From positions 192,001 to 256,000 of the forward strand of contig CAVPCT010000001.1 in the NCBI GenBank assembly GCA_963702475.1: a stretch of 64,000 nt of DNA, given 5' to 3'. Source of the stretch: an uncultured Thermoleophilia bacterium (GTDB lineage: Bacteria > Actinomycetota > Thermoleophilia > UBA2241). Each line of letters begins with the position of its first letter. Within the stretch, counting starts at the first letter, position 1. Under the pieces are notes generated by a model. That model ran no database searches and was not told where the DNA came from. It saw only the letters and a list, made by a program, of their open reading frames with translations. The translations under genes were made by a program, and so were the position numbers. Below, piece after piece: positions 32,203-60,398 of this stretch.

Positions 32203-32224
32203 CCCGGCTCGAGAGGGCACAGCC

Positions 32225-36071: not shown

Positions 36072-36284
36072 CAGCGCGCCGTCCGGGTCATGCAGGGCGA
36101 TGAGGGTACGCGCAGCATGCGAGGCCTATTCTGCACCCCCACGGGCAATCCTTCAAGGTCAAGTACAGGGTTTGACCTGACTGTCGCCTTTCCAGGCGAC
36201 ACCTGTGCCGGCGGGGCGTGCGTGAGGACTCACGACGCACGGCTGGGTTTCCCGGCCGGCCGCCTCCTATATAATCGTTGCCCC

Positions 36285-38656: not shown

Positions 38657-39066
38657 AGGTCACGCAGCTCACCGCTTTCCTCGAGAACCGCAGCGGGCGG
38701 CTCGCCGAGGTCGCCGATATCCTCGGCAACGCCGGCATCAACATCCGCGGCTTCTCCACCACCGAGGCCGCCGAGTACGGCATCGTACGCCTCATCGTGA
38801 CCGAGCCGGAGAAGGCCCGCCGGCTGCTGCACGACGCGGGCTTCACCACACACTTCGCCCAGGTGGTGTGCGTCAAGGTCGAGGACGAGCCCGGCGGCCT
38901 GGCCCGCGTGCTCGACGAGCTCGCCGCCGCGGGCGTCTCCATCGACTATCTGTACAGCATCTCGTTCCAGTACATCTGCTTCGCCCTGCGCGACGTGGAC
39001 CGCGCGGTCGAGCTGCTCCAGGGCAAGGTCGAGATGCTGAGCGACGAGGAGGTGCTCGCCCTGTGA
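38653..39066 (+). CDS. Tandem ACT domain protein
   Basis: FLENRSGRL and VEDEPGGL. Confidence 0.88.
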   Translation: MKVTQLTAFLENRSGRLAEVADILGNAGINIRGFSTTEAAEYGIVRLIVTEPEKARRLLHDAGFTTHFAQVVCVKVEDEPGGLARVLDELAAAGVSIDYLYSISFQYICFALRDVDRAVELLQGKVEMLSDEEVLAL

Positions 39067-43803: not shown

Positions 43804-43851
43804 GACTGTTCATTCTACTGGACGAGGTGACGCGGGAGCCGCGCGCCACGT

Positions 43852-44649
43852 TCAGGCCGGCGCGCGGCTGAGATCGTCGTCCCCCGGGTCCTCGTGGCGC
43901 ACGACCCTCCCCTTCTTGGGCGCGACCCGGCGCGCGAGCGGGATGCTGATCTCGTAGAGGACGAGGAGCGGCACGAGCATGGCGAGCATGGAGAAGGGGT
44001 CCTGGCTGGGCGTGATGATGGCGGCGGCGATGGCCATGATGACGATCGCCCAGCGACGGTTCTTCTTGAGGAACCTGTCGTCGATGACGCCGACCTTGGC
44101 GAGCAGCACGAGGATGACCGGCATCTCGAAGACCGCCCCGAAGGCGAGGATGAAGAGGGCCACGAAGGTGAAGTAATCGGTGGCCCGGTTCTGGATGTTG
44201 AAGCTGCCGGCGTTGAAGCCCAGCAGGAACTGCAGGCCGCGCGGCAGGACCACGAGGTAGCCGAAGACGACGCCCCCGAGGAAGAGGGCGCTGGTGGCCA
44301 CGACGATGGGGTAGAAGTACTTCTTCTCGCCGGAGGAGAAGGCCGGCCCCACGTAGGCCCACAGCTGCCAGATGAGGAAGGGGCTGGCCATGAGGATGGC
44401 GGCCACCACCCAGACCTTGAGGCTGATGAGGAACGGCTCCGTGGGGCTGAAGGTGGCGATCTTGTAGGCCGCGGGGTCGAGGTTCGGGACCTGGTTCAGG
44501 GGATAGAGGAGCAGGTCGAAGACGCGGTCGCTGAAGATGGAGGCGATGAGCAGCCCGACGGCGAGCGCGATGACGCACATGACGATGCGCTTGCGCAGCT
44601 CGTCGAGGTGTTCGTACAGGCTGAGGCGTGCTTCGGGGTCGACGGGCAT
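43852..44649 (-). CDS. tatC: Twin-arginine translocase TatC
   Basis: EHLDELRKR, PTEPF, FEMP, ITPSQDP and LYEISI. Confidence 0.95.
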   Translation of the reverse strand: MPVDPEARLSLYEHLDELRKRIVMCVIALAVGLLIASIFSDRVFDLLLYPLNQVPNLDPAAYKIATFSPTEPFLISLKVWVVAAILMASPFLIWQLWAYVGPAFSSGEKKYFYPIVVATSALFLGGVVFGYLVVLPRGLQFLLGFNAGSFNIQNRATDYFTFVALFILAFGAVFEMPVILVLLAKVGVIDDRFLKKNRRWAIVIMAIAAAIITPSQDPFSMLAMLVPLLVLYEISIPLARRVAPKKGRVVRHEDPGDDDLSRAPA

Positions 44650-44656
44650 GGCGGCG

Positions 44657-45196
44657 TCAGGCGTCCTTGTCGGCGGCGGCGGTGTCGCGCTCGCCGGTCG
44701 CGGTGGCCGAGGAGCCGTTGCCCGACGGCTTCTGGCCGAGCATCTCTTCGAGCACGGCGTCGTTCATGGCGATGCCGGCGCCCTGTGGCCAGGAGTCGTC
44801 ATCGTCGACGGGTGGGGCCACCTGCACGGGCTTGTCGACGGCCGCAGCGCCCGCGCTCTTCGCGGCGCCGGCGCCGATGACCGTCTTGGCCACCGACATC
44901 GGGCTCTTGAGGTCGATGGACATGCCGGCCTTGATCGCGCCGAGCGCCTCGCCGGCGCCGGTGCTCTTGACGTCGTCCTTGACGCCGTTGTAGTCGCTGG
45001 TGATGCCGTCCCGCACGCCCTTGAACTCGTCGATGACCTCGTCCAGCCCCAGCTCTGACTTGGCCGAGTTGGTGGCGCGCCGGAACTCGCGGACGGCGCG
45101 CCCCAGGCTGCGCCCGGCCTGGGGCAGGCGATTCGGCCCGAAGATCAGCAGGGCGATGACGAGCACAAGGATGATCTCCATGGGGCCGACGCTCAC
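44657..45196 (-). CDS. TatA/TatB family subunit with a long C-terminal tail
   Basis: GPMEIILVLVIALLIFGPNRLP...LGRAVREFRRA. Confidence 0.88.
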   Translation of the reverse strand: MSVGPMEIILVLVIALLIFGPNRLPQAGRSLGRAVREFRRATNSAKSELGLDEVIDEFKGVRDGITSDYNGVKDDVKSTGAGEALGAIKAGMSIDLKSPMSVAKTVIGAGAAKSAGAAAVDKPVQVAPPVDDDDSWPQGAGIAMNDAVLEEMLGQKPSGNGSSATATGERDTAAADKDA

Positions 45197-45386
45197 GGGG
45201 GGGTACCTCGAGTCGGGAGGGTATCGAGCGCCACTAATCTTAGAGGGGCCGCTGCGCAGATTCAACGCGGCCCCCTCCGCCCGCCGCCGTTGCTGCTCCG
45301 TCCGCGCCTCGGCGTTTCAAAAACACGCGGGAAACGCCTGCAAATGACGTATGAAGCGGGGATACCCCCGGAGGTTCTTCTCGTAG

Positions 45387-45416: not shown

Positions 45417-45451
45417 CCGCCACGCGCCTCGCACCGGGGTGGGTCGGTGCC

Positions 45452-45841
45452 TTGGCGCTTCTGCTCATGGGGATGATCGCGACATACCTAACAGACTGGG
45501 TCTACGTCTGGCTGTTCATCGTCGCCGGGGCGGCGCTGGTGGTCGCCATCCTGCTGTTCTCCAAGGTCATCAACCCCAGCCACCCCACGCCCGAGAAGCT
45601 GTCCACGTACGAATGCGGCATCCCGCCGGTCGGCAACCCGTGGGCGCCGTTCGCGGTGCGGTACTACGTGGTCGCACTGCTGTTCCTGGTCTTCGACGTG
45701 GAGGCCGTGTTCCTGTTCCCGTGGGCACTCGTGTTCCGCTCGCTCGGCACGGCGGGCTTCGTCGAGATGCTGCTGTTCATCGCCGTCCTCGGTCTCGGCC
45801 TGCTGTACGCGTGGCGAAAGGGGGCGCTGGAGTGGGCGTGA
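45452..45841 (+). CDS. nuoA: Complex I subunit A
   Basis: [21 protein letters not shown]. Confidence 0.95.
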
Positions 45842-46377
45842 GCGACCTGCGCTACCCGAAGCTCGAGAACTTCAACAAGCCCAACGTCATCACCACGACC
45901 GCGGACTTCGTATTCAGCTGGGCGCGCTCGCATTCCGTGTTCCCGTTCACCTACGGTCTGGCCTGCTGCGCCATCGAGATGCTGAGCTCGGGCTTCGCCC
46001 GCTTCGACGTGGCGCGGTACGGCATGGAGGTCTTCCGGCCGACCCCGCGCCAGTGTGACCTCATGATCGTGGCCGGCACGTGCAACGAGAAGATGGCACC
46101 GGTGCTCCGCCGCCTGTACGACCAGATGGCCGAGCCCAAGTGGGTCATCAGCATGGGCGCCTGCGCCACCAGCGGCGGGCCCTTCTACGACGGCTACAAC
46201 GTCGTCAACGGCGTCGACAAGATCGTGCCGGTCGACGTGTACATCCCCGGCTGCCCGCCGCGTCCCGAGGCCCTGTTCCAGGGGCTGCTGGAGCTTCAGG
46301 GCAAGATCCAGCGCCACAAGTTCGTGGCCGAGCTGCCCGAAGTGGGCGCCGGCGGCGACGTCGCCGAGAAGGGCTGA
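45838..46377 (+). CDS. nuoB: Complex I subunit B
   Basis: [23 protein letters not shown]. Confidence 0.95.
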
Positions 46378-46378
46378 C

Positions 46379-46873
46379 GTGGCGCTCGAGGTCGGCAGCA
46401 ACCCCATGAGCATGGACGCCATCGCGGAGACGCTGGCGGCCGACTTCGGCGGCGATGTCGGCGACGTGCACGTGCAGGAGCCCGACACCATCGTGGCGCG
46501 CTGCGACCGTGCCGTGCTCAAGTCGGTGGCACGGCGTCTCAAGGAGCACCCGCTGATCGGCTATCAGACGCTCAACTTCATCGCCGGTGTCGACCGCATG
46601 AAGCACTTCGACAGCGTGTACCACGTGTACTCGTGGAAGACCAACACGTGGCTGCAGCTCAGCGTCGAGGTCCCGTTCGGCACGCCCGAGGTCGACACCG
46701 TCACCGACGTGTGGCCGGCCGCCGACTGGCACGAGCGCGAGGCGTGGGACATGGTCGGCATCGTCTATGTCGGCCACCCCGACCTGCGCCGCATCCTGCT
46801 CAAGGACGACTTCGTCGGGCACCCGTTGCGCAAGGACTACATCGACAGCGCGGAGAACCACCCGCATGTTTGA
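46379..46873 (+). CDS. nuoC: Complex I subunit C
   Basis: [11 protein letters not shown]...GHPDLRRIL...GHPLRKDY. Confidence 0.95.
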
Positions 46874-48082
46874 CCAGTTCGCCACCGTCGAGCCGGACGA
46901 GGCCGTCAAGCTCGCGCTGCGACGCCTCGACGAAGCGAACGCGCGCGGCGAGGGATCGAACCTGGAGGGCATCGCCCTCGACGAGGTGGTCGTCAACATG
47001 GGCCCGCAGCACCCCTCCACGCACGGCGTGCTGCGTCTCGTGTGCACCCTCGACGGCGAGCTCATCAAGGATGTCATCCCGGTGATCGGCTACCTGCATC
47101 GCTGCAAGGAGAAGCTCGCCGAGAAGCGCACGTACTACCAGTACATCCCCATCGTCGACCGCACCGAGTACCTCGCCAGCATCAACTGCGAGTGGGGCTA
47201 CGTGCTGGCGGTCGAGAAGCTCATGGGCATCACGCCGCCGCGGCGGGTGGAGTTCATCCGCGTCATCAGCGGCGAGCTCATGCGCATCGCCAGCCACCTC
47301 GTGGCCGTCGGCACGTTCGTGGCCGACCTCTCGCCGCTGGGCACCGCCATGGGCTTCTACACGTTCCGCGACCGCGAGATCGTCCTCGACCTGCTCGAGT
47401 CGCTCACGGGCGCGCGCATGATGTTCAACTACTTCCGTTTCGGCGGGTGTGCGCTACGACCTGCCCGACGGCTGGATAGAGCAGTGCCGCGACTTCCTGA
47501 AGAAGATGCCGAAGCTCATTGACGAGTACGAGGCGCTGTGCAGCGACAACGCCATCTTCTTGCAGCGCACCATGGGCAAGGGCGTGATCACGCAGCAGGA
47601 CGTCATGGACTACGGCATCACGGGCCCCAACGCGCGCGCCTCGGGCGTCGCCCTCGACCTGCGCCGCGCCAAGCCGTACTCGGTCTATCCGGAGCTCGAC
47701 TTCGAGCTGTGCGTGGAGAGCCACGGCGACGTGTACGACCGGTACCTCGTGCGCATCCGCGAGATGCGCGAGTGCGTCAAGATCGTGGAGCAGTGCCTCG
47801 ACATGCTGCCCGAAGGGCCCCGTCCAGCTCGGCTCGCTGCGCGCCCCCTACGTCATCACGCCGCCGCCGGGCGCCGTGTACGTGGGCCAGGAGAACCCGC
47901 GCGGCGAGTACGGCACCTACATCGAGAGCGACGGCTCGCGGTACCCGTACCGTCTCAAGTTCCGCGACCCCTGCTTCTGCAACCTGCAGCTCTTCCCCAA
48001 GCTGCTCACCGGCATCAAGATCGCCGACGCCATCGCCGTGTCCGGGAGCATCGACCTCGTGCTCGGAGGCATCGACCGATGA
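46866..48082 (+). CDS. nuoD: Complex I subunit D (two +1 frameshifts near 47446 and 47820, probably sequencing errors)
   Basis: [20 protein letters not shown] and [11 protein letters not shown] are spread over three track ORFs. Confidence 0.92.
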
Positions 48083-49201
48083 TCGACGTCATCCTCGCGA
48101 TCCTCCGCGCGATCCTGTTCGTCGTGATCGCCTACTCGGTGCTCATGGTCGCGGCGCTCGTCAACATCCTGCTGGAGCGCCGCGCCCTGGCCTTCATGCA
48201 GGACCGCCTCGGTCCCAACCGCACCGGCTGGCAGGGCACGCTGCAGAGCGTCGCCGACGCCTTCAAGATGATGGGCAAGGAGGACTTCCGCCCGGCCCTG
48301 GCCGACCCCTTCCTGTTCACCCTCGCGCCGATCATCGTCATGATCGGCGCCGTCGGTGTGCAGCTCGCGCTGCCGTACACCAACGGCCTCACCGGCGCGA
48401 GCCTCGACGTCGGCATCATCTTCATCGTCGCCATCACCGGATTCACGACGCTGGCCATCCTCATCGGAGGCTGGTCGTCACGCAACAAGTTCTCCCTCGT
48501 CGGCGCCCTGCGCGCCGCCGCGCAGATGGTCTCGGTACGAGATCCCCATGATCCTGGGCCTGCTCGTCGTGGCCATGGTCGTCGGCTCGCTCAATCTGAA
48601 CGCGGTCGTGGCGGCGCAGGCGGACTACCAGTGGATCGCCTTCTACGCGCCGTTCACCTTCTTCATCTTCTACGTCGCCTCCATCGCGGAGCTGAACCGC
48701 GGCCCGTTCGACCTTCCCGAAGGCGAGTCGGAGCTCGTGGCCGGCTACGTCACCGAGTACTCGGGCATGCGCTTCGGCATGTTCTACCTCAATGAGTACG
48801 GCGGCCTCACCATCATGTCCATGGTCGCCGTCACGCTGTTCTTCGGCGGGTGGCAGGGCCCCTATTCCGACGCCATCGTGTTCTGGAACGTGTCCTGGCT
48901 CGGCATCGTGTACTTCCTCATCAAGACGTACATCCTGGTGTTCGCCCTCATCTGGATACGCCTGTCGCTGCCGCGACTGCAGGTCGACCAGCTCATGGCG
49001 TTCGCCTGGAAGATCCTCATCCCGCTGGGGCTCGTCAACATCCTCTGCACGGCCGCCATCATGCTGTGGGCGCCGCAGTGGAAGCTGGCCATGGCCGCCT
49101 TCAGCTGGGTCGCCCTGATCGCCTTCGCCGGCCTGTTCGACCCCATCCTCAAACGGCGCCTGCGCAAGCAGCGTGAGCGCCAGCCGGTGGTGAACGTCTG
49201 A
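48079..49201 (+). CDS. nuoH: Complex I subunit H (+1 frameshift near 48535)
   Basis: ERR...QDRLGPN, AAQMVS/YEIP, AELNRGPFDLPEGESELVAG. Confidence 0.92.
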
Positions 49202-49962
49202 TGCTCGGCATGCTGAAGGCCATGCGCACCACGATCGGCCACCTTCCCAAACGCAAGATCACGGTGCAGTACCCGGAGCAGCGCGAGCAGCTCCCGGAGC
49301 GCAGCCGCGGCCTGTTCCGCGTGGTCGTCGATCCGGTGACGGGAGACCCGCGTTGCCGCTCCTGCACGCTCTGCGAGAGCAACTGCCCGGTGCAGGTCAT
49401 CCGCGTGAACCACACCAGCAGGTACAACGTGCCTGTGCCCAACACGGCGCGCATCGCGCAGGTGCGCGTGGAGGCCCAGGCCGACGTGGACATCAAGGCG
49501 CTGCAGCCGGTGCTGGACGACTACTACGAGCACGGCACCGGCCTCATCGCCCTGCTGCAGAACGCGCAGGCGGTGTACGGTTACCTGCCGCGCCTGGTCA
49601 TCCAGGAGATCTCGCTGCAGACCGGCATCTCCCTCAGCCAGATCTACGGTGTGTCGAGCTTCTACAACCAGTTCCGCCTCTCGCCCGTGGGCGAGCACAT
49701 CATCGACGTGTGCCACGGCACGGCCTGCCACGTGGCGGGGGCCGTGCAGATCACCGAGGCGCTGGAGGAGGAGCTCGGGATCCCCGACGGCAAGACCACC
49801 AAGGACATGAAGTTCACGCTGTCGTCCGTGGCCTGCATGGGGGCCTGTTCGCAGGCTCCCGTGATGCGCATCGGCGACAAGACCTACGGCGGCCTCACCC
49901 CTGACAAGACGCGCACCATCATCCGCGACCTCATGGCCGAACTGGGCGCGGAGAAGGGGTGA
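49201..49962 (+). CDS. Fusion of the N-terminal half of NuoI to a NuoE/HydC [2Fe-2S] domain
   Basis: TVQYPEQ...ERSRG...CRSCTLCESNCP (one motif only), then YGYLP, SFYNQF, CHGTACH and ACMGAC. Confidence 0.88.
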   Translation: MLGMLKAMRTTIGHLPKRKITVQYPEQREQLPERSRGLFRVVVDPVTGDPRCRSCTLCESNCPVQVIRVNHTSRYNVPVPNTARIAQVRVEAQADVDIKALQPVLDDYYEHGTGLIALLQNAQAVYGYLPRLVIQEISLQTGISLSQIYGVSSFYNQFRLSPVGEHIIDVCHGTACHVAGAVQITEALEEELGIPDGKTTKDMKFTLSSVACMGACSQAPVMRIGDKTYGGLTPDKTRTIIRDLMAELGAEKG

Positions 49963-49973
49963 CGAGAGACACC

Positions 49974-51911
49974 ATGGCAGACGAGATCAGAGACGACGCG
50001 ACCGAGGTCGCCGAGGCAGCACAGGCCGCGGCGGCGACCGCGGCGCCTGAGAACGAGGCACGCAACGTGCGCGTCGCGGCAGCGCCGGGCGGCGGCTACA
50101 AGGTCACCGTGTGCGCCGGCACCGCCTGCGTGTTCGCCGGCTCCATGGCCGTGTTCGACGCGTTCGTGGAGGAGGTCCAGACGGCCGGCCTGGGCGACCG
50201 CGTGGAGGTCAGCATCATCGGCTGCCACGGCCTCTGCTCCATGAGCCCCGTCGTCGTGCTCAGCGACGACACGCTGTACGGGCACCTGCGTCCCCGGGAC
50301 GTCGGCAAGGTCGTGCAGGAGCACCTCGTGGACGGCACGCCGGTGGAGCGCTTCCTCTACAAGGATGCGCAGACCGGCGAACGCATCCGCGACTGGCACG
50401 AGATCGGCTTCTACAAGCAGCAGACGCGCATCGCCCTGCGCGACGTGGGCGTCATCGACCCGGAGAGCATCGACGAGTACGTCGCGCGCGGCGGCTACGA
50501 GGCCGCGCGTCTGTCGCTCTCCGAGAAGACGCCCGAGTGGATCATCCAGCACGTCACCGACTCGGGCATCCGCGGCCGTGGCGGCGCCGGCTTCCCGACG
50601 GGCGTCAAGTGGAAGTTCGCCAACCAGTCGCAAAGCGACCAGAAGTACCTCATCTGCAACGCCGACGAGGGTGACCCCGGCGCGTTCATGGACTGCTCCA
50701 TCCTCGAGGGCGACCCGCACGCCGTGCTCGAGGGCATGGTCATCGGCAGCTACGCCATCGGCGCGCACGAGGGGTACGTGTACGTGCGCGCCGAGTACCC
50801 GCTGGCCGTGAAGCGCCTCACCAAGGCGGTCGCCGACGCCGAGGCGCGCGGCTTCCTCGGCAAGGACATCTTCGGCACCGGCTGGGAGTTCGACCTGCAC
50901 CTCAAGCTCGGCGCCGGCGCCTTCGTGTGCGGCGAAGAGACGGCGCTCATCGCCTCCATCGAGGGCAAGCGCGGCATGCCGCGCACGCGGCCGCCGTTCC
51001 CGGCCGTCTCCGGTCTCTGGGGCAAGCCGACGAACATCAACAACGTCGAGACCTTCAGCAACATCCCCTGGATCATCATGCACGGTGCCGAGGCCTACGC
51101 TGCGCTCGGCGTAGAGACCAGCCGCGGCACCAAGGCCTTCAGCCTGGCCGGCAAGATCGTCAACGGTGGCCTCGCAGAGGTTCCCATGGGCTCCACCCTC
51201 CGCCACGTCATCTTCGACGTGGGCGGCGGCATCAAGGACGGCAAGGCGTTCAAGGCCGTACAGCTCGGCGGCCCCTCCGGCGGCTGCGTGCCGGCGAGCC
51301 TGCTCGACACGCCGGTCGACTACGAGAGCCTCGCCGCGACCGGCGCCATCGTCGGCTCCGGCGGCATGGTCGTGGTGGACGAGGACACCTGCATGGTCGA
51401 CCTCGCGCGCTTCTTCCTCGACTTCACGCAGAAGGAGTCGTGCGGCAAGTGCGTGCCGTGCCGCCTCGGCACGAAGCGCATGCTCGAGACGCTCGACCGC
51501 ATCATCGCCGGTTGTGGCAGGGACGGCGACATCGAGCTGCTCGAGGAGCTCAGCCGCTACGTCATCGAGGGCAGCCTGTGCGCGCTCGGCGGCACTGCGC
51601 CCAACCCGGTGCTCACCACCATCAAGTACTTCCGCGAGGAGTACGAGGCGCACGTCTACGAGAAGCGCTGCCCGGCCGGCAAGTGCAAGGACCTCATCGA
51701 GTACTACATCGACGCTGAGGCCTGCACGGGCTGCATGCTCTGCGCCAAGAAGTGCCCCACCGAGTGCATCACCGGCGAGAAGAAGCAGCCGCACGTGATC
51801 GACGTGAGCGCCTGCATCAAGTGCGACACCTGTCGCCAGGTCTGCAAGTTCGACGCCGTCAAGGTCCACTCGGGCGTCGCCGAGATCGCGGCCGCGGGGC
51901 AGGGGGCGTAA
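49974..51911 (+). CDS. nuoF: NuoF of the HydB/BfuB (electron-bifurcating) type
   Basis: N-terminal thioredoxin-like [2Fe-2S] domain, RGRGGAGFPTG, NADEGDPGAFMD, GAFVCGEETAL, ESCGKCVPCR, EAH...CPAGKC and a C-terminal 2[4Fe-4S]. Confidence 0.92.
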   Translation: MADEIRDDATEVAEAAQAAAATAAPENEARNVRVAAAPGGGYKVTVCAGTACVFAGSMAVFDAFVEEVQTAGLGDRVEVSIIGCHGLCSMSPVVVLSDDTLYGHLRPRDVGKVVQEHLVDGTPVERFLYKDAQTGERIRDWHEIGFYKQQTRIALRDVGVIDPESIDEYVARGGYEAARLSLSEKTPEWIIQHVTDSGIRGRGGAGFPTGVKWKFANQSQSDQKYLICNADEGDPGAFMDCSILEGDPHAVLEGMVIGSYAIGAHEGYVYVRAEYPLAVKRLTKAVADAEARGFLGKDIFGTGWEFDLHLKLGAGAFVCGEETALIASIEGKRGMPRTRPPFPAVSGLWGKPTNINNVETFSNIPWIIMHGAEAYAALGVETSRGTKAFSLAGKIVNGGLAEVPMGSTLRHVIFDVGGGIKDGKAFKAVQLGGPSGGCVPASLLDTPVDYESLAATGAIVGSGGMVVVDEDTCMVDLARFFLDFTQKESCGKCVPCRLGTKRMLETLDRIIAGCGRDGDIELLEELSRYVIEGSLCALGGTAPNPVLTTIKYFREEYEAHVYEKRCPAGKCKDLIEYYIDAEACTGCMLCAKKCPTECITGEKKQPHVIDVSACIKCDTCRQVCKFDAVKVHSGVAEIAAAGQGA

Positions 51912-51919
51912 GAGGAGTC

Positions 51920-54398
51920 ATGGCGACGACGGTCGAGAACATCCCGCAGGCCGAGGTCCGCACCGGACCAGGTGCTCGTCACCATCGACGGGCAGGAGGT
52001 GGCGTGCGAGCGCGGCGAGACCATCCTGGAGGCCGCTCGCCGCGTCGGCATCAGCATCCCGACGCTGTGCTACGAGCCGCGGCTGCCGGCCACCGCCGCC
52101 TGCCGCATGTGCATCGTCGAGGTCGAGGGCGCGCGCAAGATGGTGCCCAGCTGCTCCGCCGCCGTCGCCGACGGCATGGTGGTGCGCACCGACACCGAGA
52201 AGATCCGCGCCATGCGGCACCTGTATCTGGAGCTGCTGCTGAGCGACCACAACTCGTTCTGCACGCCGCCCTGCCGCGACGCCTGCCCCACGCACATCAA
52301 GATCCCGCAGTTCCTCGACTACATCTCGCAGCGCGACTACAAGAACGGCGTGCGCAAGCTGCGCGAGGACCTGCCCTTCCCGGGCGTGCTCGGCCGCGTG
52401 TGCCCGCGCCCCTGTGAGGGCCCGTGCCGCCGCCAGCTCGTGGAGGAGCCCATCACCATCTGCCAGCTCCACCGCTTCATGGCCGACGAGACCAGGGACG
52501 AGGAGCAGGAGGGCGAGCTGCTGCTGCCGGTCGAGCCCAAGGCCGACACCGGCAAGCGCATCGCCGTGGTCGGCGGCGGCCCCGCCGGCATGGCCGCCGC
52601 GTTCTACGCGCGGCTCGAGGGCCACTCCGTGAAGATCTTCGAGGCGCTGCCCAAGATCGGCGGCATGCTGCGCTACGGCATCCCCAGCTACCGGATGCCG
52701 CGCGACGTCCTGGACGCCGAGACCAACATCCTCTGGCGGCTGGGCGTGGAGCTCCAGGTCGACAGCCGCCTGGGTGTGGACTACCAGATCGAGGACCTCT
52801 TCGCGCAGGGTTTCGACGCGGTGTTCCTGGCGCTCGGGGCCTTCAACTCCAACGACATGGGCGTCCCCGGCGAGGACGCCCAGGGCGTCGTCACCGCCGT
52901 GGACTTCCTCGGCGAGCTCGAGCTCACGGGCGACGTGCACGTGGGCCGCAAGGTCACCGTGATCGGCGGCGGCTTCACCGCCATGGACGCCTGCCGCACC
53001 AGCATCCGCAAGGGCGCCGCCCAGGTCACCTGCCTCTACCGCCGCTCGCGCAAGGAGATGCCCGCCCATCACACCGAGGTCGACGAGGCCGAGGAGGAGG
53101 GCGTCAAGCTCGAGCTGCTCTGCGCGCCGGTGCGCGTGGTGACCGATGCGGACCACAAGGTCACCGGCATCGAGATGCAGCGCATGGAGCTCGGCGAGCC
53201 CGACGCCTCCGGCCGCCGGCGCCCGGTCCCCGTGGAGGGCAGCGAGTTCATCATCGAGTGCGACCAGATCATCACCGCCATCGGCCAGTTCCCCAAGCTG
53301 GACGGCACCAGCGAGGAACAGGGCGTCAAGCGCACCAAGTGGCGCACCATCGAGGTGGACGACTGGACCTTCCAGACGGAGGATCCGCGCGTGTTCGCCG
53401 GAGGCGACGTCGTGCTCGGCGCGCAGACGGTCATCCAGGCCATCGCCCAGGGCAAGAAGGCCGCGTGGAGCATGGACGCGTACCTGCGCGGCCTCGACAT
53501 GCACGAGGTCTCGGAGTCACTCGGCGAGCTGCGCCGCACGCCGTTCTTCGACGCGCTCTCCGTGAAGGCCGGCATGGACCCGGCCGTCGCGCGCATGGCC
53601 GAGGTGCCGCCCACGTTCATCGACATGACCACCGACATCACGCGCCCCAGCCCGCCGGCCGGGATGCCCAAGCTCGGGCCCGACGAGCGCAAGACCAACT
53701 TCAAGCAGATCGAGCTGGGCTTCCCCGAGGAGGAGGCCGTGCGCGGCGCCGAGCTGTGCCTGCAGTGCTACTGCCCGGCCAGCGGCACCTGCGACCTGCA
53801 GAAGTACTCCATCGAGTACGAGGTCTTCAAGAACCGCTTCCACGGCGGCGAGGCGCACGACTACCCGGCCGACTTCCGTCACGACTTCATCATGCGCGAA
53901 CCCAACCGCTGCATCAGCTGCGGGCGCTGCGTGCGCGTGTGCCGCATGGAGGTCGGCTCGAGCTGCTACGACAACATGGGCCGCGGCTTCGACTCCATCG
54001 TCTCCACCGCCGACAACCTGCCCTTGCAGCTCGTCGGCTGCGTGAGCTGCGGCAAGTGCGCGGAGACGTGCCCCACCGGCTCCATCGAGACCAATCCGCG
54101 GCGTCTGGAGAGCTACGACCTCGACGAGAGCCGCTGCATCTTCTGCGGGGAGTGCGTGGAGGTCTGCCCCTACAACGCGCTCGAACAGACCGACTTCTTC
54201 GAGCTCGCCGACTACAGCCGCACCAAGCTGGCCACGCAGTCGCTGTACGTGCGCGAACCGCGCCCGGTCGACCCGCTGCGCGAGACGCTCAAGGACCTCG
54301 TGCCGCACGTGCTCGACGCCGAGCGCGGCGAGGGCTGGACCTGGGAGCCCATCAAGGACGACCCCATCGTGCTCGACGAGCCGGGAGGCCACCACTGA
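51920..54398 (+). CDS. NuoG-like Fe-S protein with an inserted GltD/NfnB FAD-NADPH domain and the C-terminal half of NuoI (probable +1 frameshift near 51960)
   Basis: [2Fe-2S] PTLC...ACRMC...C; GRVCPRPCE, GGGPAG, YGIPSYR, GGGFTAMD, YRRS; CISCGRCVRVC, CVSCGKCAETCP; YDLDESRCIFCGECVEVCP...FEL. The ATG at 51920 with a GAGGAG RBS is one base out of frame with 51972..54398. Confidence 0.88.
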
Positions 54399-54913
54399 TG
54401 CCGGGCGGCGACTTCCAGCCCTGGCTGTTCTTCATCCTGGCGGCGTGGATCCTCATCTGCGCCCTCGGCGTGGTGGTCTTCAAGAAGGTCATGTACTCGG
54501 CCGTGGCCATGGTCTTCTGCTTCCTGGGCGTCGCCTTCGCCTACGCGCTGCTGGCCGCCTCGCTGGTCGCGATCATCCAGCTTCTGGTGTACGTGGGCGC
54601 CATCTCCGTCGTGATCATCTTCGCGATCATGCTCACCGAGGTGCAGTCCGGCGGCTTCGACCTCTTCTTCAACCGCCAGACGGCCATCGCCGCGCCGCTG
54701 GCCATCGTCGCGGCCGGCGTGGTCATCGCCGTCCTCGCCGGCTCCACGATCGGCGGCGTCGGCGAGAAGGCGCTCAACCCGGGCGTGCGCGGCGTCTCGC
54801 ACATCCTGTTCGCCGCGTACGTGTTCCCGTTCGAGCTGGTCTCGCTGGTGCTGGTCGCCGCGATGATCGGCGCGATCGTGCTGGCGCGCCGTGAAGAGGA
54901 GAAGAAGTCGTGA
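54398..54913 (+). CDS. nuoJ: Complex I subunit J
   Basis: QLLVYVGAISV and YVFPFELVSLVL. Confidence 0.93.
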   Translation: MPGGDFQPWLFFILAAWILICALGVVVFKKVMYSAVAMVFCFLGVAFAYALLAASLVAIIQLLVYVGAISVVIIFAIMLTEVQSGGFDLFFNRQTAIAAPLAIVAAGVVIAVLAGSTIGGVGEKALNPGVRGVSHILFAAYVFPFELVSLVLVAAMIGAIVLARREEEKKS

Positions 54914-55218
54914 ACCCTCTCTACTGGTGGCTCACGCTCTCGGTGTGTCTCTTCTGCATCGGCGCGTTCGGCGTGCTCGCGCGCCGTAACGTCATCGTGG
55001 TGGTCATGTGCCTGGAGCTCATGCTCAACGCCGTGAACATCGCCCTGGTGGCGACCAGCAACTTCCGCAGCGGCGCCCAGGGTGCCGGCCAGCTGTTCGC
55101 GTTGTTCATCATCGTGCTGGCCGCCGCCGAGGTCACCGTGGGTCTCGCCATCGTCATCGCCAACTACCGCAACCGTCGCACGGTCCAGACCGACCGGTTC
55201 GACGAGCTCAAAGGCTGA
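54910..55218 (+). CDS. nuoK: Complex I subunit K
   Basis: ELMLNAVN and AAAEVTVGLAI. Confidence 0.95.
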   Translation: MNPLYWWLTLSVCLFCIGAFGVLARRNVIVVVMCLELMLNAVNIALVATSNFRSGAQGAGQLFALFIIVLAAAEVTVGLAIVIANYRNRRTVQTDRFDELKG

Positions 55219-55229
55219 TTGGAGCGTCC

Positions 55230-57170
55230 GTGGAAGCAGAAGCCACCACGCACATCATCACGGAGGGCCCGCAGTTCCTGCGGGTCGCGGTGGCCCTCAT
55301 CGTGCTTCTGCCGCTCCTGGGCTTCATCGTGACGCTCGTCTTCGGCAAGCGTTGGGGATCCAAGGCGCATATCCTGCCGGTCGCCATGGTGACCGCCACG
55401 GCCGTCCTCAGCATCTACGCCTTCGAGTGGGTGTTCCGGCACTCCGAGGAGACGTTCGTATGGAACGCCTTCACCTGGATCGCGGCCGGGCGCTTCGAGA
55501 TCGCCTGGGGCTTCCAGGTGGACTCGCTCACCGGCGTCATGCTGCTGGTGGTCGGTATCATCGGCATGCTCGTGCACTACTACTCCATCGGGTACATGCA
55601 CGGCGACGAGGGCTACTACCGGTTCTTCGCCTACCTCAATCTCTTCATGTTCGCGATGTTCGTGCTCATCCTCGCGAACAACTACGTGCTGCTCTTCCTC
55701 GGCTGGGAGGGCGTCGGTCTCTGCTCCTACCTGCTGATCTCTTTCTGGTTCGCCAAGAAGAGCGCCAGCCAGGCGGGCAAGAAGGCGTTCCTCGTGAACC
55801 GCGTGGGCGACTTCGGGTTCACGCTCGGCATGTTCCTCATCTTCACCGCGACCGGCACCCTGCAGTTCACGGGCGTGTTCGAGAAGGCGCCGGAGATCGC
55901 GCAGGGTACCCTCCTGTGGATCTGCCTGCTGCTGTTCACCGGCGCCGTCGGCAAGAGCGCGCAGTTCCCGCTGCACGTGTGGCTGCCGGATGCCATGGAG
56001 GGCCCCACCCCGGTCAGCGCCCTGATCCACGCCGCCACCATGGTCAACGCCGGCGTGTACATGGTCGCGCGCTCGTATCCGCTCTTTCTGGAGACGCACA
56101 CGGCGATGCTGGTGGTGATGGGCATCGGCGCCTTCACGGCGATCTACGCGGCGTACATCGCCATCACGCAGAACGACATCAAGAAGGTCATCGCCTACTC
56201 CACGCTGTCGTCGCTGGGCTTCATGTTCCTGGCCCTTGGGGCCGGCGCCTGGGTGGCCGGCATCTTCTACCTGTTCGCACACGGCTTCTTCAAGGGCCTC
56301 ATGTTCCTCTGTTCGGGCTCGGTGATCCACGCCATGGGCGGCGAGCAGGACATGCGCAAGATGGGCGGGCTGCGCAAGAAGATCCCCATCACCTTCTGGA
56401 CCATGCTCATCGGCGCCCTGGCCATGGTCGGCATCATCCCGTTCGCCGGGTTCTGGGCGAAGGACGAGATCATCGGCGCCGCCTGGGTGCACGGGTACTA
56501 CGTGGTGTGGGCGGTGGCCATGGTCACCGTGGTGCTCACCGGCATCTACGTGTTCCGCCTCATCTTCATGACCTTCTGGGGCGAGAGCCGTGCCGACGCC
56601 GAGGTGCAGCACCACATCCACGAGTCGCCGCCGGTCATGACCGTACCGCTCATCCTCCTCGCCATCCCGGCTGTGGGCCTGGGTCTCCTGGTCGGCCTTC
56701 CGCCGGAGGGAGGCTGGCTGCACTCCTTCCTCGAGCCCGTCTTCTTCGAGACCGAGCACGAGGTGTTCACGTGGATCGGCGAGGGCGGCGCGCTCATGGG
56801 CGTCTCGCTGCTCGCCGCCCTGGCCGGCATCTACGTCGCGTGGCGCTACTACGTGCGCGACACCGCCGCCCCGGCGCGCATCGCGGGGCGCGTGCCGATC
56901 CTGTACAAGGCCAGCTTCAACAAGATGTACATGGACGAGATCTACGAGGTCGCGCCCATCCGCGCCACCATCGGCGCCTCCGTGTGGCTGTGGCAGGTCG
57001 TGGACGCCAGGATCATCGACGGCGCCGTGAACGGCGTTGGCAAGGTCTGGGGATGGGTCGGCACCGGTCTGCGCCCCATCCAGACCGGCCGCGTGCAGAA
57101 CTACGCGATGTACGTGTTCGCCGGCATGATCGCGCTGGTCGTCGTCCTCGCCTGGATCTGGGGGGCGTGA
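55230..57170 (+). CDS. nuoL: Complex I subunit L
   Basis: GKSAQFPLHVWLPDAMEGPTPVSALIHAATMV; QTGRVQNY. Confidence 0.96.
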   Translation: MEAEATTHIITEGPQFLRVAVALIVLLPLLGFIVTLVFGKRWGSKAHILPVAMVTATAVLSIYAFEWVFRHSEETFVWNAFTWIAAGRFEIAWGFQVDSLTGVMLLVVGIIGMLVHYYSIGYMHGDEGYYRFFAYLNLFMFAMFVLILANNYVLLFLGWEGVGLCSYLLISFWFAKKSASQAGKKAFLVNRVGDFGFTLGMFLIFTATGTLQFTGVFEKAPEIAQGTLLWICLLLFTGAVGKSAQFPLHVWLPDAMEGPTPVSALIHAATMVNAGVYMVARSYPLFLETHTAMLVVMGIGAFTAIYAAYIAITQNDIKKVIAYSTLSSLGFMFLALGAGAWVAGIFYLFAHGFFKGLMFLCSGSVIHAMGGEQDMRKMGGLRKKIPITFWTMLIGALAMVGIIPFAGFWAKDEIIGAAWVHGYYVVWAVAMVTVVLTGIYVFRLIFMTFWGESRADAEVQHHIHESPPVMTVPLILLAIPAVGLGLLVGLPPEGGWLHSFLEPVFFETEHEVFTWIGEGGALMGVSLLAALAGIYVAWRYYVRDTAAPARIAGRVPILYKASFNKMYMDEIYEVAPIRATIGASVWLWQVVDARIIDGAVNGVGKVWGWVGTGLRPIQTGRVQNYAMYVFAGMIALVVVLAWIWGA

Positions 57171-57171
57171 C

Positions 57172-58758
57172 GTGACCTGGCAAGACCAGATGGGCTTCCC
57201 CGTGCTCAGCGTCATCACCTTTCTGCCGCTCGCCGGCGTCGTGCTCATGCTGCTCCTCGGTCGCGGGCGACCGCAGGTGTACAAGGTCATCGCGCTCGTC
57301 GCCACGCTCGCCGCCTTCGCCCTGAGCATCTGGATGATGGTCGTCTTCAACACCGGTGAGCCCGGCGTGCAGTTCACCGAAGACGTCATGTGGATCGAGC
57401 AGTTCAACATCCACTACCGCTTCGGTGTGGACGGCATCGCCGCCGTCCTGCTCTTCCTGACCACGTTCCTCGGCGTCATCGTGGTCCTCGGCAGCTGGCA
57501 CTACGTGAAGGACAGGGAGCTCGGCTTCTTCGTGTCGCTCCTGTTGCTGCAGGTGGGCATGGCCGGCGTGTTCTGCGCCACCGACCTCTTCCTGTTCTAC
57601 GTGTTCTGGGAGGCCATGCTGGTGCCGATGTACTTCATCATCGGCATCTGGGGTGGCCCGCGGCGCATCTACGCGGCCATCAAGTTCTTCCTGTTCACGC
57701 TGATCGGCAGCCTGCTCATGCTGGTCGCCATCATCGTGGTCGTGTACGCGGCCAAAGACCAGGCCGGTCACCTCACGTGGGACATCCAGGAGCTCGGCCG
57801 CATGGTGTTCACCTACGACCTGCAGTTCTGGGCCTTCCTCGCCTTCTTCGTGGCCTTCGCCATCAAGGTGCCGATGTTCCCGGTGCACACCTGGCTCCCG
57901 GACGCGCACGTCGAGGCGCCCACGGCCGGCTCCGTGATCCTCGCCGGCGTGCTCCTGAAGATGGGTGGATACGGCATCCTGCGCTTCTGCCTGCCCTTCT
58001 TCCCGGACGCGGCCGTCACGTTCATCCCGTACATCATCGTGCTGTCGGTGATCGCCGTCGTGTACGGGGCGATGGTGTCGCTCGTGCAGAAGGACCTCAA
58101 GAAGCTGGTCGCCTACTCGAGCGTGAGCCACATGGGGTTCGTGACCATGGGCATCTTCGCGGCCATCGCCGTACTGGGGAACGCCGCCGGCATGGAGGGC
58201 GCCATCCTGGTGATGTTCAGCCACGGCCTGCTCACGGGCGCCCTGTTCCTCATGGTCGGCTACATGTACGAGCGCACGCACACGCGACAGATCGCCGACC
58301 TCGGCCAGCTGGCCAAGCCGATGCCGGTCATGGCCGGCTTCTTCCTGTTCTTCGTGTTCGGGTCGGCGGGGCTGCCCGGGCTCAGCGGTTTCGTCGGGGA
58401 GTTCCTGAGCCTGCTCGGGCTGTTCGCGTACTCGCACTGGCTGGCGGCCGTCGCCGCCACCGGCGTCATCCTGGCGGCGGCCTACCTGCTCTGGATGTTC
58501 CAGCGCACGATGTTCAACGATCGCGGCGACGCCGAGCTGCGGCCGTCCACGCCGCTCGCCGACCTCAACCTGCGTGAGATCACCACGCTCGTCCCGCTGG
58601 TGGTGCTGGTCATCTGGGTCGGCGTCTACCCGGCCACGCTGCTCGACTACCTGCACGTGCCCGTGGACATGATCCTGCTGCGCGTCACGCCCGCCCTCAG
58701 CAGCGAGCACACGAACGTGCTGGCCCAGCTGGTCGACACCGCGAAAGGTCTCTTCTGA
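57172..58758 (+). CDS. nuoM: Complex I subunit M
   Basis: FYVFWE, KVPMFPVHTWLPDAHVEAPT, SGFVGEF. Confidence 0.96.
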   Translation: MTWQDQMGFPVLSVITFLPLAGVVLMLLLGRGRPQVYKVIALVATLAAFALSIWMMVVFNTGEPGVQFTEDVMWIEQFNIHYRFGVDGIAAVLLFLTTFLGVIVVLGSWHYVKDRELGFFVSLLLLQVGMAGVFCATDLFLFYVFWEAMLVPMYFIIGIWGGPRRIYAAIKFFLFTLIGSLLMLVAIIVVVYAAKDQAGHLTWDIQELGRMVFTYDLQFWAFLAFFVAFAIKVPMFPVHTWLPDAHVEAPTAGSVILAGVLLKMGGYGILRFCLPFFPDAAVTFIPYIIVLSVIAVVYGAMVSLVQKDLKKLVAYSSVSHMGFVTMGIFAAIAVLGNAAGMEGAILVMFSHGLLTGALFLMVGYMYERTHTRQIADLGQLAKPMPVMAGFFLFFVFGSAGLPGLSGFVGEFLSLLGLFAYSHWLAAVAATGVILAAAYLLWMFQRTMFNDRGDAELRPSTPLADLNLREITTLVPLVVLVIWVGVYPATLLDYLHVPVDMILLRVTPALSSEHTNVLAQLVDTAKGLF

Positions 58759-60398
58759 TGGGCGCCGCCAACAACGCCATCGTCGTGATCCTGCCCGGCG
58801 TCGTCCTGGCCGTGGCCGCCGCCCTGGTGCTGGTCGTCGACCTCTTCACGGAGCGCAAGGGCATGCTCGCGTGGCTCGCGGCCGGCGGTTTCGTCGCGAC
58901 GGCGGCCGTGGCCGTGGGGCAGTGGATCCGCTTCACCGACGGTCGCCTGCTGTTCAACGCACGCAAGCCCGAGACCGGGTTCGCCGGCATGGTGTCCCTG
59001 GACAAGTACGCGCTGTTCTGCGTGGTGCTGTTCTGCGCCATCGGCGTGGCCACCGTCATGCTGTCGGACTCGTATCTGGCGCGTCGCCGCGCCGCACGCG
59101 GCGAGTTCTACGTGCTGCTCATGCTCATCGTCACCGGCATGATCGGCATGGTCGTCAGCACCGACATCATCGCCTTCTTCGTGTCGTTCGAGCTCATGTC
59201 GCTGCCCACGTACGTGCTCGCCGGCTACCTGTGGCGCGACGTACGCTCGGGCGAAGCCTCCATCAAGTACTTCGTCACCGGCGCCTTCTCGTCGGCCATC
59301 CTGGCCTTCGGCCTGGCCCTGTTGTACGGCGCCACCGGGCAGACCAGCTACGCCGGCATCGCGCAGGGACTGGCCGCCATCGACGCGCGCGGGCTGGACG
59401 CCCGCGGCTTCCTCGTGGTCGCCTTCGTGCTCGTGGTCACCGGCTTCGGCTTCAAGATCTCGGCCGTGCCGTTCCACAGCTGGGCGCCAGACGTGTACGA
59501 GGGGGCGCCCACGCCGGTCACCGCCTTCATGTCCACCGGCGTCAAGGCCGCCGCCTTCGCCGGCTTCGCCAAGCTGTTCGTGCTCGCCGCCGCCGTGCAG
59601 TGGCAGCTGTGGGTGCACACCATGACCATCCTCGCGATCCTCACCATGGTCGTGGGGAACGTGCTCGCTCTGCCGCAGCGCAACATCAAGCGCATGCTCG
59701 CCTACTCCAGCGTCGCCCACGCGGGGTACCTCACCCTGGGCCTCATCGCGGCCGGTACGGCGGGCGTCTGGGACGGTGTCACCGCCATCCTGTTCTACCT
59801 GGTCACGTACGCGCTGATGAACCTGGGCGCCTTCGGCGCGCTCGTCTGGATCCGTAACAAGCGCGCCTTCGACTACTCGCTGGACGGCATCGCCGGCCTG
59901 GGACGCACGATGCCGTGGCCGGCGATGATGCTGGCCGTGCTCATGGTCTCACTCACGGGCATCCCGCCGACGGCCGGCTTCTGGGGCAAGTTCTACCTGT
60001 TCACCGCCGTCATCCGGGCCGACCTCACGTGGCTGGCGATCATCGCCGTCGTCATGAGCGCCGTGTCCGCCTACTACTACCTGCGGGTGGTGTGGTTCAT
60101 GTACTTCCGTGAGGCGAACGAGCCGGCCGCCGCAGGCGACGTCTCCCCGGCGGCCGTGGGCGCTCCGAGCGCGGTCGCCGTCCCGGGCGCCGTCTTCGCC
60201 TCCGCTGCCGGCGGGGCAGCCTCGGCATCGGGCACGTCGGGCGCTCCCGTCGAGCCGCCCGCGCAGCGCCAGCCCGGTCAGGCGGGCGTGGTGTGGGCTG
60301 TGAGCCTGTGCGTCTTCGGCGTGATCGCCGTCGGCCTGTTCCCCGGGCCGCTGCTGCGGTTCGCGGAGGGCGCGCTGCGGGTGGTCCTCGGCGGGTGA
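58758..60398 (+). CDS. nuoN: Complex I subunit N
   Basis: EASIKYF, KISAVPFHSWAPDVYEGAP, GIPPTAGFWGK. Confidence 0.96.
   Translation: MGAANNAIVVILPGVVLAVAAALVLVVDLFTERKGMLAWLAAGGFVATAAVAVGQWIRFTDGRLLFNARKPETGFAGMVSLDKYALFCVVLFCAIGVATVMLSDSYLARRRAARGEFYVLLMLIVTGMIGMVVSTDIIAFFVSFELMSLPTYVLAGYLWRDVRSGEASIKYFVTGAFSSAILAFGLALLYGATGQTSYAGIAQGLAAIDARGLDARGFLVVAFVLVVTGFGFKISAVPFHSWAPDVYEGAPTPVTAFMSTGVKAAAFAGFAKLFVLAAAVQWQLWVHTMTILAILTMVVGNVLALPQRNIKRMLAYSSVAHAGYLTLGLIAAGTAGVWDGVTAILFYLVTYALMNLGAFGALVWIRNKRAFDYSLDGIAGLGRTMPWPAMMLAVLMVSLTGIPPTAGFWGKFYLFTAVIRADLTWLAIIAVVMSAVSAYYYLRVVWFMYFREANEPAAAGDVSPAAVGAPSAVAVPGAVFASAAGGAASASGTSGAPVEPPAQRQPGQAGVVWAVSLCVFGVIAVGLFPGPLLRFAEGALRVVLGG

Follow-up and report, generated by a model that had tools for sequence, protein, structure and literature searches.

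The Bfu family of flavoproteins was defined by Schut et al. (2022; PMC9304861), who characterised the soluble Nfn-Bfu enzyme and predicted a 14-subunit complex termed ‘Nuo-Bfu’; a complex I that carries a Bfu module is thus already known as a prediction. According to the main text of that study, Nuo-Bfu is encoded by a nuo operon with a long BfuB-type F subunit and a BfuC-type E subunit in the place of NuoEF, menaquinone as third substrate and proton pumping are proposed for it, and its hosts are Deferribacteres, Proteobacteria (Geobacter-like), Planctomycetes and Nitrospirae. Structures of NfnABC from cryogenic electron microscopy have defined the flavobicluster site, the cluster path and the ferredoxin site of the soluble enzymes (PMC11829005, PMC12018979), and Degli Esposti (2015; PMC4758237) described GltD-like flavoproteins that replace NuoI in Mbx-like operons. 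Here we analysed a nuo operon of an uncultured Thermoleophilia bacterium (assembly GCA_963702475.1), which lies within a stretch of 64,000 nucleotides (nt) of contig CAVPCT010000001.1 (C1; positions 192,001 to 256,000). This stretch is called the window, and all coordinates refer to its numbering unless a contig or another locus is named. By gene order and family models, the membrane arm and the quinone module (Q-module) of this operon are those of a respiratory complex I with an 11-subunit gene order (A, B, C, D, H, I, J, K, L, M, N), and three genes of an Nfn/Stn-type flavoprotein module of the Bfu family are located inside its nuoI gene.

The attachment of input modules to the complex I scaffold is a long-standing evolutionary question, and here the genes themselves record it: the coding sequence of a core Fe-S subunit is interrupted between its cluster motifs, in a putative loop, and each part is joined to a subunit of the module. 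The locus resembles Nuo-Bfu in that the EFG positions of the nuo cluster are taken by BfuABC. In contrast to the 14 separate subunits A to N with an intact NuoI that are predicted for Nuo-Bfu, thirteen genes are present here and NuoI occurs as two halves fused to E and G; moreover, the A subunit is of the Nfn type, with a GltD-like FAD/NADPH domain and no Fdh-like domain, and the hosts are Thermoleophilia. The alignments reveal a close relationship to the soluble NfnABC and StnABC enzymes (Caldicellulosiruptor, 9BOV and 9BP5; Sporomusa, 8OH5; Thermococcus, 9N5U), since the G subunit aligns with them through the 2Fe-2S domain, the GltD clusters, the FAD/NADPH sites and the 2x[4Fe-4S] domain, F has all NfnB loops and ligands, and E has the C1 cysteines. 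However, about 480 residues of NfnA (the NuoG/Fdh-like domain) are replaced here by about 100 residues of the NuoI C-half, the lysine that ligates cluster A7 is a histidine, E carries the NuoI N-half, and the genes belong to the operon of a membrane complex.

Canonical 14-subunit complex I (Thermus Nqo1-14 and a further copy on contig C3 of the same genome) shares with the locus the Q-module and membrane subunits, the N2 cysteines, the HGVLR motif and, at 38-40% identity, both halves of NuoI, whereas here the input module is a different one, NuoI is present in two pieces on other subunits, the large NuoG domain is lacking, and an extra FAD/NADPH site and extra clusters are found. Mbx-like operons (PMC4758237) and the Mbh-Bfu of Dehalococcoides (PMC9304861) likewise have, in mid-operon or where NuoI would be expected, a GltD-type NAD(P)H flavoprotein or a Bfu module, but as described in these papers they are of the hydrogenase or Mbx type, have no quinone-type NuoD/NuoB pair, and show NuoI replaced rather than split and kept. 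In full-text literature searches, neither a split NuoI nor a nuo operon with an Nfn-type module was seen to be described, and the words ‘NuoI’ and ‘Actinobacteria’ are absent from the main text of PMC9304861. A 2026 mBio study of a fungal non-bifurcating hydrogenase and the Hakuba actinobacteria paper likewise contain nothing on such an arrangement. The locus is set apart from these systems by the tether of split NuoI, by an A subunit of the Nfn type that lacks the Fdh domain and by its Thermoleophilia hosts, and it is a candidate membrane-bound member of the Bfu family, of which there is none among the solved structures or in the Bfu literature as far as the cited texts cover it.

The divided NuoI subunit

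The operon extends from 45440 to 60398 on the plus strand as one tightly packed unit of about 66-70% G+C. Its gene order, which is read directly from the DNA together with the domains of its products, is A-B-C-D-H-[NuoI N-half::NuoE]-[long BfuB-type NuoF]-[2Fe2S-GltD-Fe/S::NuoI C-half]-J-K-L-M-N. The three central plus-strand genes are designated IE (49201-49962; fusion of the NuoI N-half with NuoE, 253 amino acids, aa), F (49959-51911; long BfuB-type NuoF, 650 aa) and G (51920-54398; NfnA/StnC-like protein fused to the NuoI C-half). The reading frame of G is uninterrupted from 51972 (808 aa), and its homologs of 824-825 aa begin 17 residues earlier; the corresponding ATG at 51920, which yields a protein of 825 aa, is preceded by GAGGAG. 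Stop and start codons overlap at D/H, H/IE, IE/F and G/J, so there is no space for a further gene at H/IE, IE/F or G/J.

The NCBIfam model of NuoI, TIGR01971 (121 positions), is divided between the two outer genes of this triplet. Its positions 2-66 align with residues 8-74 of IE (E 3.4e-13) and its positions 67-116 with residues 706-755 of G (E 1.4e-16), and the two pieces do not overlap. A genome-wide search with the model retrieved a single full NuoI above the cut-off, namely, the one encoded by the canonical nuo operon of contig C3 (155 bits). It is followed in the ranking by the N-half proper at 49222-49422 (C1:241222-241422, plus strand, 50.1 bits) and the C-half proper at 54087-54236 (C1:246087-246236, plus strand, 49.6 bits), each of which, on its separate polypeptide, stays below the family cut-off of 113 bits. 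Residues 1-72 of IE are 40% identical to the canonical NuoI of the genome, including the N-terminal segment that is specific for NuoI, and the tail of G is 38% identical to its C-terminal half. Each half contains one CxxCxxCxxxCP motif, that of the C-half (54135-54170) being followed by the C-terminal tail of NuoI, and both motifs are invariant in alignments of relatives. The cut lies between the two cluster motifs, at the midpoint of the protein, in a stretch that the alignment to canonical NuoI suggests to be a loop.

Both halves are fused to module subunits, and the module would thus be covalently tied to the quinone module. An earlier note on this DNA had proposed that the module is wired to the proton-pumping arm, and its location inside nuoI agrees well with that proposal. 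The same note listed the arm without NuoI, which needs correction, and it placed the module at 49974-54100; this interval takes in F and most of G, but it ends 35 nt before the motif of the C-half and omits the E gene. The alignments further indicate that the second NuoI half occupies the place of the Fdh-like domain at the C-terminus of an NfnA/StnC-like subunit: residues 3-728 of G align with residues 6-698 of the 1178 residues of Caldicellulosiruptor (Csac) NfnA (9bov_A), and the C-terminus of G extends about 80 residues past the end of this alignment.

A structure prediction for residues 590-808 of G together with residues 1-100 of IE reached a score of 0.35 compared with a best score of 0.00 in three controls, which hints at an association of the halves. 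The runs shared at least 82% of the contacts, and the predicted local distance difference test (pLDDT) value of the partner was at least 64. In the calibration, the mark was passed by 58 of 80 solved complexes and by 2 of 110 mismatched pairs, scores of at most 0.60 comprised only 7 of the 80 solved complexes plus both passing mismatched pairs, and halves of a known fold may pass through their likeness to solved structures.

The input module and the loss of its ports

The IE protein comprises the NuoI part (aa 1-75), a linker and a thioredoxin-like [2Fe-2S] NuoE domain (aa 99-244), which matches the NuoE model NF005722 with 145 bits against a cut-off of 141 and PF01257 over aa 104-244 (E 6e-47). 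Its cysteine motifs are located at aa 52-63, 171-176 and 212-216, and the C1 cysteines reside in CHGTAC and CMGAC. F contains an N-terminal thioredoxin-like 2Fe-2S domain (aa 42-121, E 8e-10), the FMN/NADH core (Complex1_51K, E 3e-48), the N3/B1 cluster domain (NADH_4Fe-4S, E 3e-32), a Zn-type 3Cys-1His site and a C-terminal 2x[4Fe-4S] domain (Fer4, aa 582-635). The motifs PGAFMD (aa 240), PPFP (aa 345), CMVD (aa 478), EAH (aa 563) and CPAGKC (aa 571) occur once each. In the alignments to the B subunits 7t2r_B, 9bov_B, 9n5u_B and 8oh5_B, the two NADH loops and the full set of cluster and Zn-site ligands are kept, and all ligands of B1, B2, B3/B4, B5 and C1 are present in F and IE of the window. 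The protein set thus includes a B subunit with FMN, B1 and the extra sites B2-B5, and a C subunit with the thioredoxin-like domain of the C1 [2Fe-2S] cluster, as in other Bfu enzymes. With phmmer bit scores against chains of the Protein Data Bank (PDB) as a proxy for phylogeny, F reaches 785-807 bits with five Bfu-type B subunits (the four above and 7q4v_B), compared with 445 bits for the beta subunit of a formate dehydrogenase that does not bifurcate and 403 bits for Nqo1 of Thermus.

In G, Pfam recognises Fer2_4, Fer4_20 (the N-domain of GltD), Pyr_redox_2 (E 4e-35) and Fer4_Nqo3, and the NCBIfam model NF009454 matches aa 3-658 with 624 bits. The inventory of clusters comprises a 2Fe-2S site, the GltD-type 2x[4Fe-4S] sites, a His-type cluster motif and an Nqo3-like 2x[4Fe-4S] domain. 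Rossmann motifs for FAD and NADPH are represented by GGGPAG, GGGFTAMD and YRRS (aa 356), and GGGFTAMD and YRRSRKEMPA align with the motifs of NfnA. An H-cluster or molybdopterin family was not found among the best 25 of the 26 Pfam families matched. The closest solved chains are Csac NfnA (9bov_A, E 1.5e-186), StnC of Sporomusa (8oh5_C) and NfnA of Thermococcus (9n5u_A). An NfnL/GltD-like FAD/NADP(H) domain follows the 2Fe-2S domain, as is characteristic of Nfn-Bfu/StnABC. All motifs and domains of F and G that had been named in advance were retrieved, once each, by Pfam and by motif position, with matches far beyond chance. The assignment of the E/F/G set to the Nfn/Stn (Bfu) type is upheld by the nearest chains of G and by the scores of F, and a grouping of NuoF with non-bifurcating clades, which would have spoken against it, was not seen with the phmmer proxy.

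The architecture is conserved in relatives. Each of the 120 best database relatives of IE aligns over at least 96% of the protein, with identities of 64-91%; among the 119 relatives listed for G, 116 cover at least 97% with identities of 73-94%, and by their source names they originate from Thermoleophilia or Actinobacteria metagenome-assembled genomes (MAGs). The motif of the N-half is present in 69 of 78 loci from species-representative genomes, nearly all of which are filed as uncultured Thermoleophilia, Actinomycetes or Actinomycetota, and the gene order of the operon is identical in all 13 relatives' loci inspected. A survey of 401 genomes of the class at E<=1e-60 detected the IE fusion in the source genome and in 69 of the 79 other genomes of its family (f1), the ten genomes without a match being 56-89% complete; at this threshold, none of the 321 genomes in 11 other families of the class had it. 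The threshold missed a reduced form in a second family (f6; genomes of about 2 Mb with 59-64% G+C), which was found via weaker matches and has the same operon. There, a protein of 602 aa unites the NuoI N-half with what is left of the NuoE N-domain, the PF01257 cluster domain being absent, and with a short NuoF core that lacks the N-terminal 2Fe-2S and the C-terminal Fer4 domains; the next gene encodes a G subunit that has kept its GltD domain intact and carries the NuoI C-half. This form occurs in 23 of the 24 sampled genomes, in 22 of them at full length. In one of its loci (L103, G028:C35) the third cysteine of the N3/B1 motif is an aspartate, and in another (L102, G023:C22) the FMN loop is partly degenerate. 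By the titles of the records, the lineage is present in MAGs of many independent studies.

Three further records concern the distribution. P0242, a singleton from one assembled run, is a full-length NuoI-N-half::NuoE fusion of 251 aa with 41% identity to IE; its lysine-rich composition suggests a low-GC host. The protein hints at the same design in a distant lineage, and no relative of it was found in the metagenome scan. Two short contigs (L026, 3.8 kb; L083, 2.0 kb) with IE and F genes of 70-84% identity are filed under MAGs of Deltaproteobacteria and Vicinamibacteria and probably represent binning errors.

To follow the electron ports through the relatives, residues aligned to the window motifs were scored in the 78 loci, and 48 split-NuoI loci were fully covered. 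In 39 of them, F retains its FMN/NADH motifs and G its NADPH motifs. Seven loci retain F together with degenerate NADPH motifs of G (e.g., GDGFAA.E and no YRRS), one (L077) retains G with degenerate FMN/NADH loops of F, and in one (L073) the motifs of both are degraded. The ferredoxin-domain motifs of F, by comparison, are intact in 48 of 48 loci, and the motif of the C-half is intact in 46, the two exceptions being loci that end ahead of it. A special case is L076 (10633-14273 of that locus), in which F is short and has lost its FMN/NADH motifs, and the NADPH subdomain of G is swapped for a 2x[4Fe-4S] ferredoxin-like domain that resembles the C-terminus of F. Bifurcation is therefore not kept in all lineages, given the lost FMN motifs of L073, L076 and L077 and the short F of f6. 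As far as the motifs reveal, the conserved part is an Fe-S wire from G via the split NuoI to NuoB, and no nucleotide port is universal. This argues against an obligate Nfn-type bifurcation (NADPH to NAD+ and ferredoxin) as the conserved function, and the losses favour a funnel that would deliver reductant into quinone. The coupling of four substrates suggested by the earlier note is, in terms of its Nfn-type bifurcation as a conserved core, argued against by the same comparative data. The variants with lost ports and the reduced form of f6 represent a natural experiment on which ports matter.

A proposed electron path and competing explanations

From this architecture we infer an electron path in which the two NuoI halves would reassemble into the 2x[4Fe-4S] NuoI fold (N6a/N6b) on NuoB/NuoD, thereby providing an exit for the electrons and, at the same time, a double covalent tether in lieu of docking by the lost NuoG/Fdh-like domain. 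Up to three entry ports may exist. The GltD-type FAD of G would accept electrons from NADPH and the FMN of F those from NADH, and the C-terminal 2x[4Fe-4S] domain of F would take them from reduced ferredoxin in a confurcation with NADH at the B1-FMN-C1 site. The electrons would converge on the Fe-S chain of G. In Csac NfnA the path runs from FAD via A7, A6, A3 and A2 to A1, and A2-A4-A5 forms a dead-end branch (PMC11829005). In the complex proposed here, the exit would be provided by this very branch (A2-A4) and continue through N6a/N6b and N2 to menaquinone, thereby driving proton pumping; the direction of the flow may also reverse. The conserved core would consist of the Fe-S wire from G through split NuoI to NuoB with a mostly intact NADPH site, and the bifurcating-type BC core would be an addition that has been degraded in several lineages. 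We regard this explanation as a whole, i.e., reassembly of NuoI and delivery of electrons from the module through it to menaquinone with proton pumping, as the probable one, with some room for doubt. It would offer a concrete route from an Nfn-type module to a quinone site through a cluster branch that is described as a dead end in the soluble enzyme, and NADPH would become a donor that feeds a respiratory proton pump directly. A check of the genome for a menaquinone pathway had been proposed, and a menaquinone gene cluster of the futalosine type is present (PF02621, 220 bits, and MqnC, 488 bits, both over the cut-off); MenA was not found in the genome and MenB stayed under the cut-off.

Several observations weigh against this explanation. 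Canonical NuoI receives its electrons from the His-ligated cluster N5 and not from an A4-type cluster; the hand-over from A4 to N6a is therefore suggested only by the covalent spacing of 22 residues between the last A2/A4 cysteine and the first cysteine of the C-half. BLASTP and one alignment with a hidden Markov model (HMM) can pair the preceding motif of G itself with that of the C-half. Given this alternative pairing, the reading of a split NuoI depends on the homology of G aa 3-728 to NfnA and on the NuoI-specific N-terminus of IE; the preceding motif of G and the one before it correspond to the 2x[4Fe-4S] domain aligned with NfnA, so that the four motifs balance as two domains. A canonical 14-gene nuo operon is also present in the genome, and the split-NuoI complex would thus not be the sole route for NADH. 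The MAG itself (4.31 Mb on 9 contigs) is 93.8% complete and 6.5% contaminated. Finally, cluster A7 appears to be ligated by three cysteines and a histidine (or a nearby cysteine) instead of Cys3-Lys. The Cys3-Lys ligation of A7 is reported to be conserved in the A subunits of Bfu enzymes (PMC11829005), whereas K170 of Csac NfnA, the A7 ligand, aligns with His167 of G (window position ~52470). The position reads CxLH(R/G)F in all 55 split-NuoI loci, with a conserved cysteine three residues before the histidine, and is occupied by lysine in six of seven non-split loci of other phyla.

The strongest competitor is a two-port NAD(P)H dehydrogenase without bifurcation, in which NADH (at FMN) and NADPH (at FAD) would feed quinone independently and the extra domains of F and E would be structural leftovers with no role for ferredoxin. 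The f6 genomes speak for it, because 23 of 24 combine the split NuoI and the GltD-type G with a short NuoF and no NuoE cluster domain, as do the ports lost in 9 of the 48 f1 loci; according to the published criteria, B subunits without B2-B5 do not bifurcate (PMC9304861). In f1, however, the ferredoxin domain of F has kept its motifs in every covered locus, and L076 preserves such a domain, moved into G, while the rest of F decays. The complete set of B1, B2, B3/B4, B5 and C1 ligands in the window and the much higher scores of F with bifurcating than with non-bifurcating subunits also speak against it, and we consider this explanation rather unlikely, although it deserves to be taken seriously.

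A complex that works mainly in reverse would use menaquinol and the proton motive force (pmf) for the reduction of NADP+ and, via the BC core, of ferredoxin and NAD+, thus supplying low-potential reductant during respiration. Bfu enzymes are described as reversible (PMC9304861), and the gene content of the genome is compatible with such a role: a separate canonical nuo operon for the forward oxidation of NADH, cytochrome bd and a haem-copper oxidase, and many ferredoxin-linked enzymes, among them 2-oxoacid:ferredoxin oxidoreductases, the IorA-like gene next to the operon and some seven additional modules of the NuoEF-like kind. The sequence itself does not fix a direction, though, and a predominantly reverse function appears improbable to us.

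The same genome contains a second, conserved cassette of this design. At C5:515000-524000 (L097), a more distant version is located inside an operon for a 2-oxoacid:ferredoxin oxidoreductase with the order porD-like, porA, half-Fd::NuoE-like, F-like (58% identical) and G-like (41%), Fd denoting ferredoxin. The G-like protein of 1057 aa combines GltD and a half-ferredoxin with a fused PorB TPP domain, and end-to-end matches to this G::PorB fusion occur in 21 of 40 other genomes of the family; the intact E form (280 aa) forms a cluster of 19 proteins. It is tempting, if doubtful, to regard the half-ferredoxin ends as a portable plug by which the E-F-G cassette can be inserted into different redox machines; in the nuo operon, the result would be a four-port proton-pumping machine (NADPH, NADH, ferredoxin and menaquinone) that couples Bfu-type con- or bifurcation to the pmf. 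In that case, the lineages that have lost one port would provide a ready-made dissection series.

The paralogs most similar to F (70%) and to G (65%, Fdh-like domain present) are encoded by unlinked genes of the soluble type. The closest E and F paralogs (53% and 70%) are located at C3:609000-615000 (L096) with no G-like gene adjoining. Judged by eye from the translations, they lie directly 3' of formate-tetrahydrofolate ligase-like and FolD-like genes. The closest G paralog, with a frame break, stands alone on contig C4 at about 387-389 kb.

Remaining subunits, frame breaks and neighbouring genes

The other ten genes of the operon are all located on the plus strand and complete the Q-module and the membrane arm. 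The start of nuoA (45440-45841, frame-2 translation, stop codon at 45839-45841) is approximate, and its product is 67-84% identical to that of the first operon gene in 13 relatives' loci. It is followed by nuoB (45838-46377, start approximate), which encodes the subunit of cluster N2 and passes the NuoB model NF005012 with 241 bits (cut-off 116), and by nuoC (46379-46873, open reading frame), whose score of 121.1 bits is slightly below the cut-off of 122.45 of TIGR01961 (NuoC_fam). Two genes are interrupted, namely, nuoD (46866-48082), which is spread over three frames in the present assembly and was translated accordingly, and nuoH (48079-49201), with one break near 48534. Their intact orthologs in locus L014 (404 and 372 aa) reach 444 bits on the NuoD model NF004739 (cut-off 360) and 336.5 bits on the NuoH model NF004741 (cut-off 305). 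Downstream of G, the ATG of nuoJ (54398-54913, from translation) overlaps the stop codon of G, nuoK (54910-55218) is an open reading frame with 52-86% identity in relatives, and nuoL (55215-57170, start approximate; NF005141, 738.7 bits, cut-off 556), nuoM (57172-58758; TIGR01972, 601.5 bits, cut-off 263.8) and nuoN (58758-60398; TIGR01770, 411.8 bits, cut-off 332.6) conclude the operon. The family cut-offs are thus passed by B, L, M and N and, scored on the L014 orthologs, by D and H.

NuoB carries the tandem-cysteine motif and GCPPRP, and NuoD carries RTYYQY and HGVLR; the latter, which the earlier note had reported, is indeed encoded at 47022-47036. The NuoB cysteines are presumably the ligands of N2, and we take the His and Tyr motifs of NuoD to form the quinone site. 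The tandem cysteines of NuoB as a feature of N2 are mentioned in a figure legend of PMC4758237.

Four frame breaks, each of a single extra base, are found within about 4.5 kb: 47447 and 47817 in nuoD, 48534 in nuoH and 51963 at the start of G. G or C runs contain three of these positions, those of nuoD being in a GGG run near 47447 and a CCCC run near 47817. Short-read contigs of all four public runs aligned drop one base at 47447/47448 and at 48533/48534, and near-identical contigs with one gap each are represented by X2 record 18 (3 differences in 199 nt) and X7 record 28 (0 in 222 nt). The alignment of X2 record 24 has a single gap across the start of G and 0 differences in 195 nt, and it is not one of the listed indel rows. 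For the nuoD break near 47817, no indel occurs among the rows listed (12 of 43). All runs were compared as contigs, with at most 0.27 of the sampled words per run. In relatives, nuoD is in one frame in five of six and in five of seven loci of two sets, and other MAGs of few contigs break at different places (L012, L082 and L087). Frame breaks also affect the F paralog at C3:612842-614678 and, in the cassette on C5, the E-like gene, and the assembly thus seems to suffer from indel errors in general. Because of the intact orthologs in relatives and L014 and the one-base gaps of the public contigs, the four breaks are most likely errors of the consensus or assembly. A decaying pseudogene cluster or an assembly chimera, to which the four breaks in such a short stretch and the contamination of the MAG might point, is highly improbable and largely refuted by these gaps, by the intact nuoD of most relatives, by the differing positions of breaks elsewhere and by the uniform gene order.

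Directly upstream of nuoA, the minus strand encodes a class A penicillin-binding protein, TatC and a TatA-like gene (neighbouring genes in 32090-33658, 35955-40415 and 41641-45265). Other neighbours are a gene for an IorA-like subunit of a 2-oxoacid:ferredoxin oxidoreductase and, after it, a phenylacetate-CoA-ligase-like gene, and a homolog of MttB-family methyltransferases and a tandem GNAT gene are found nearby in the window.

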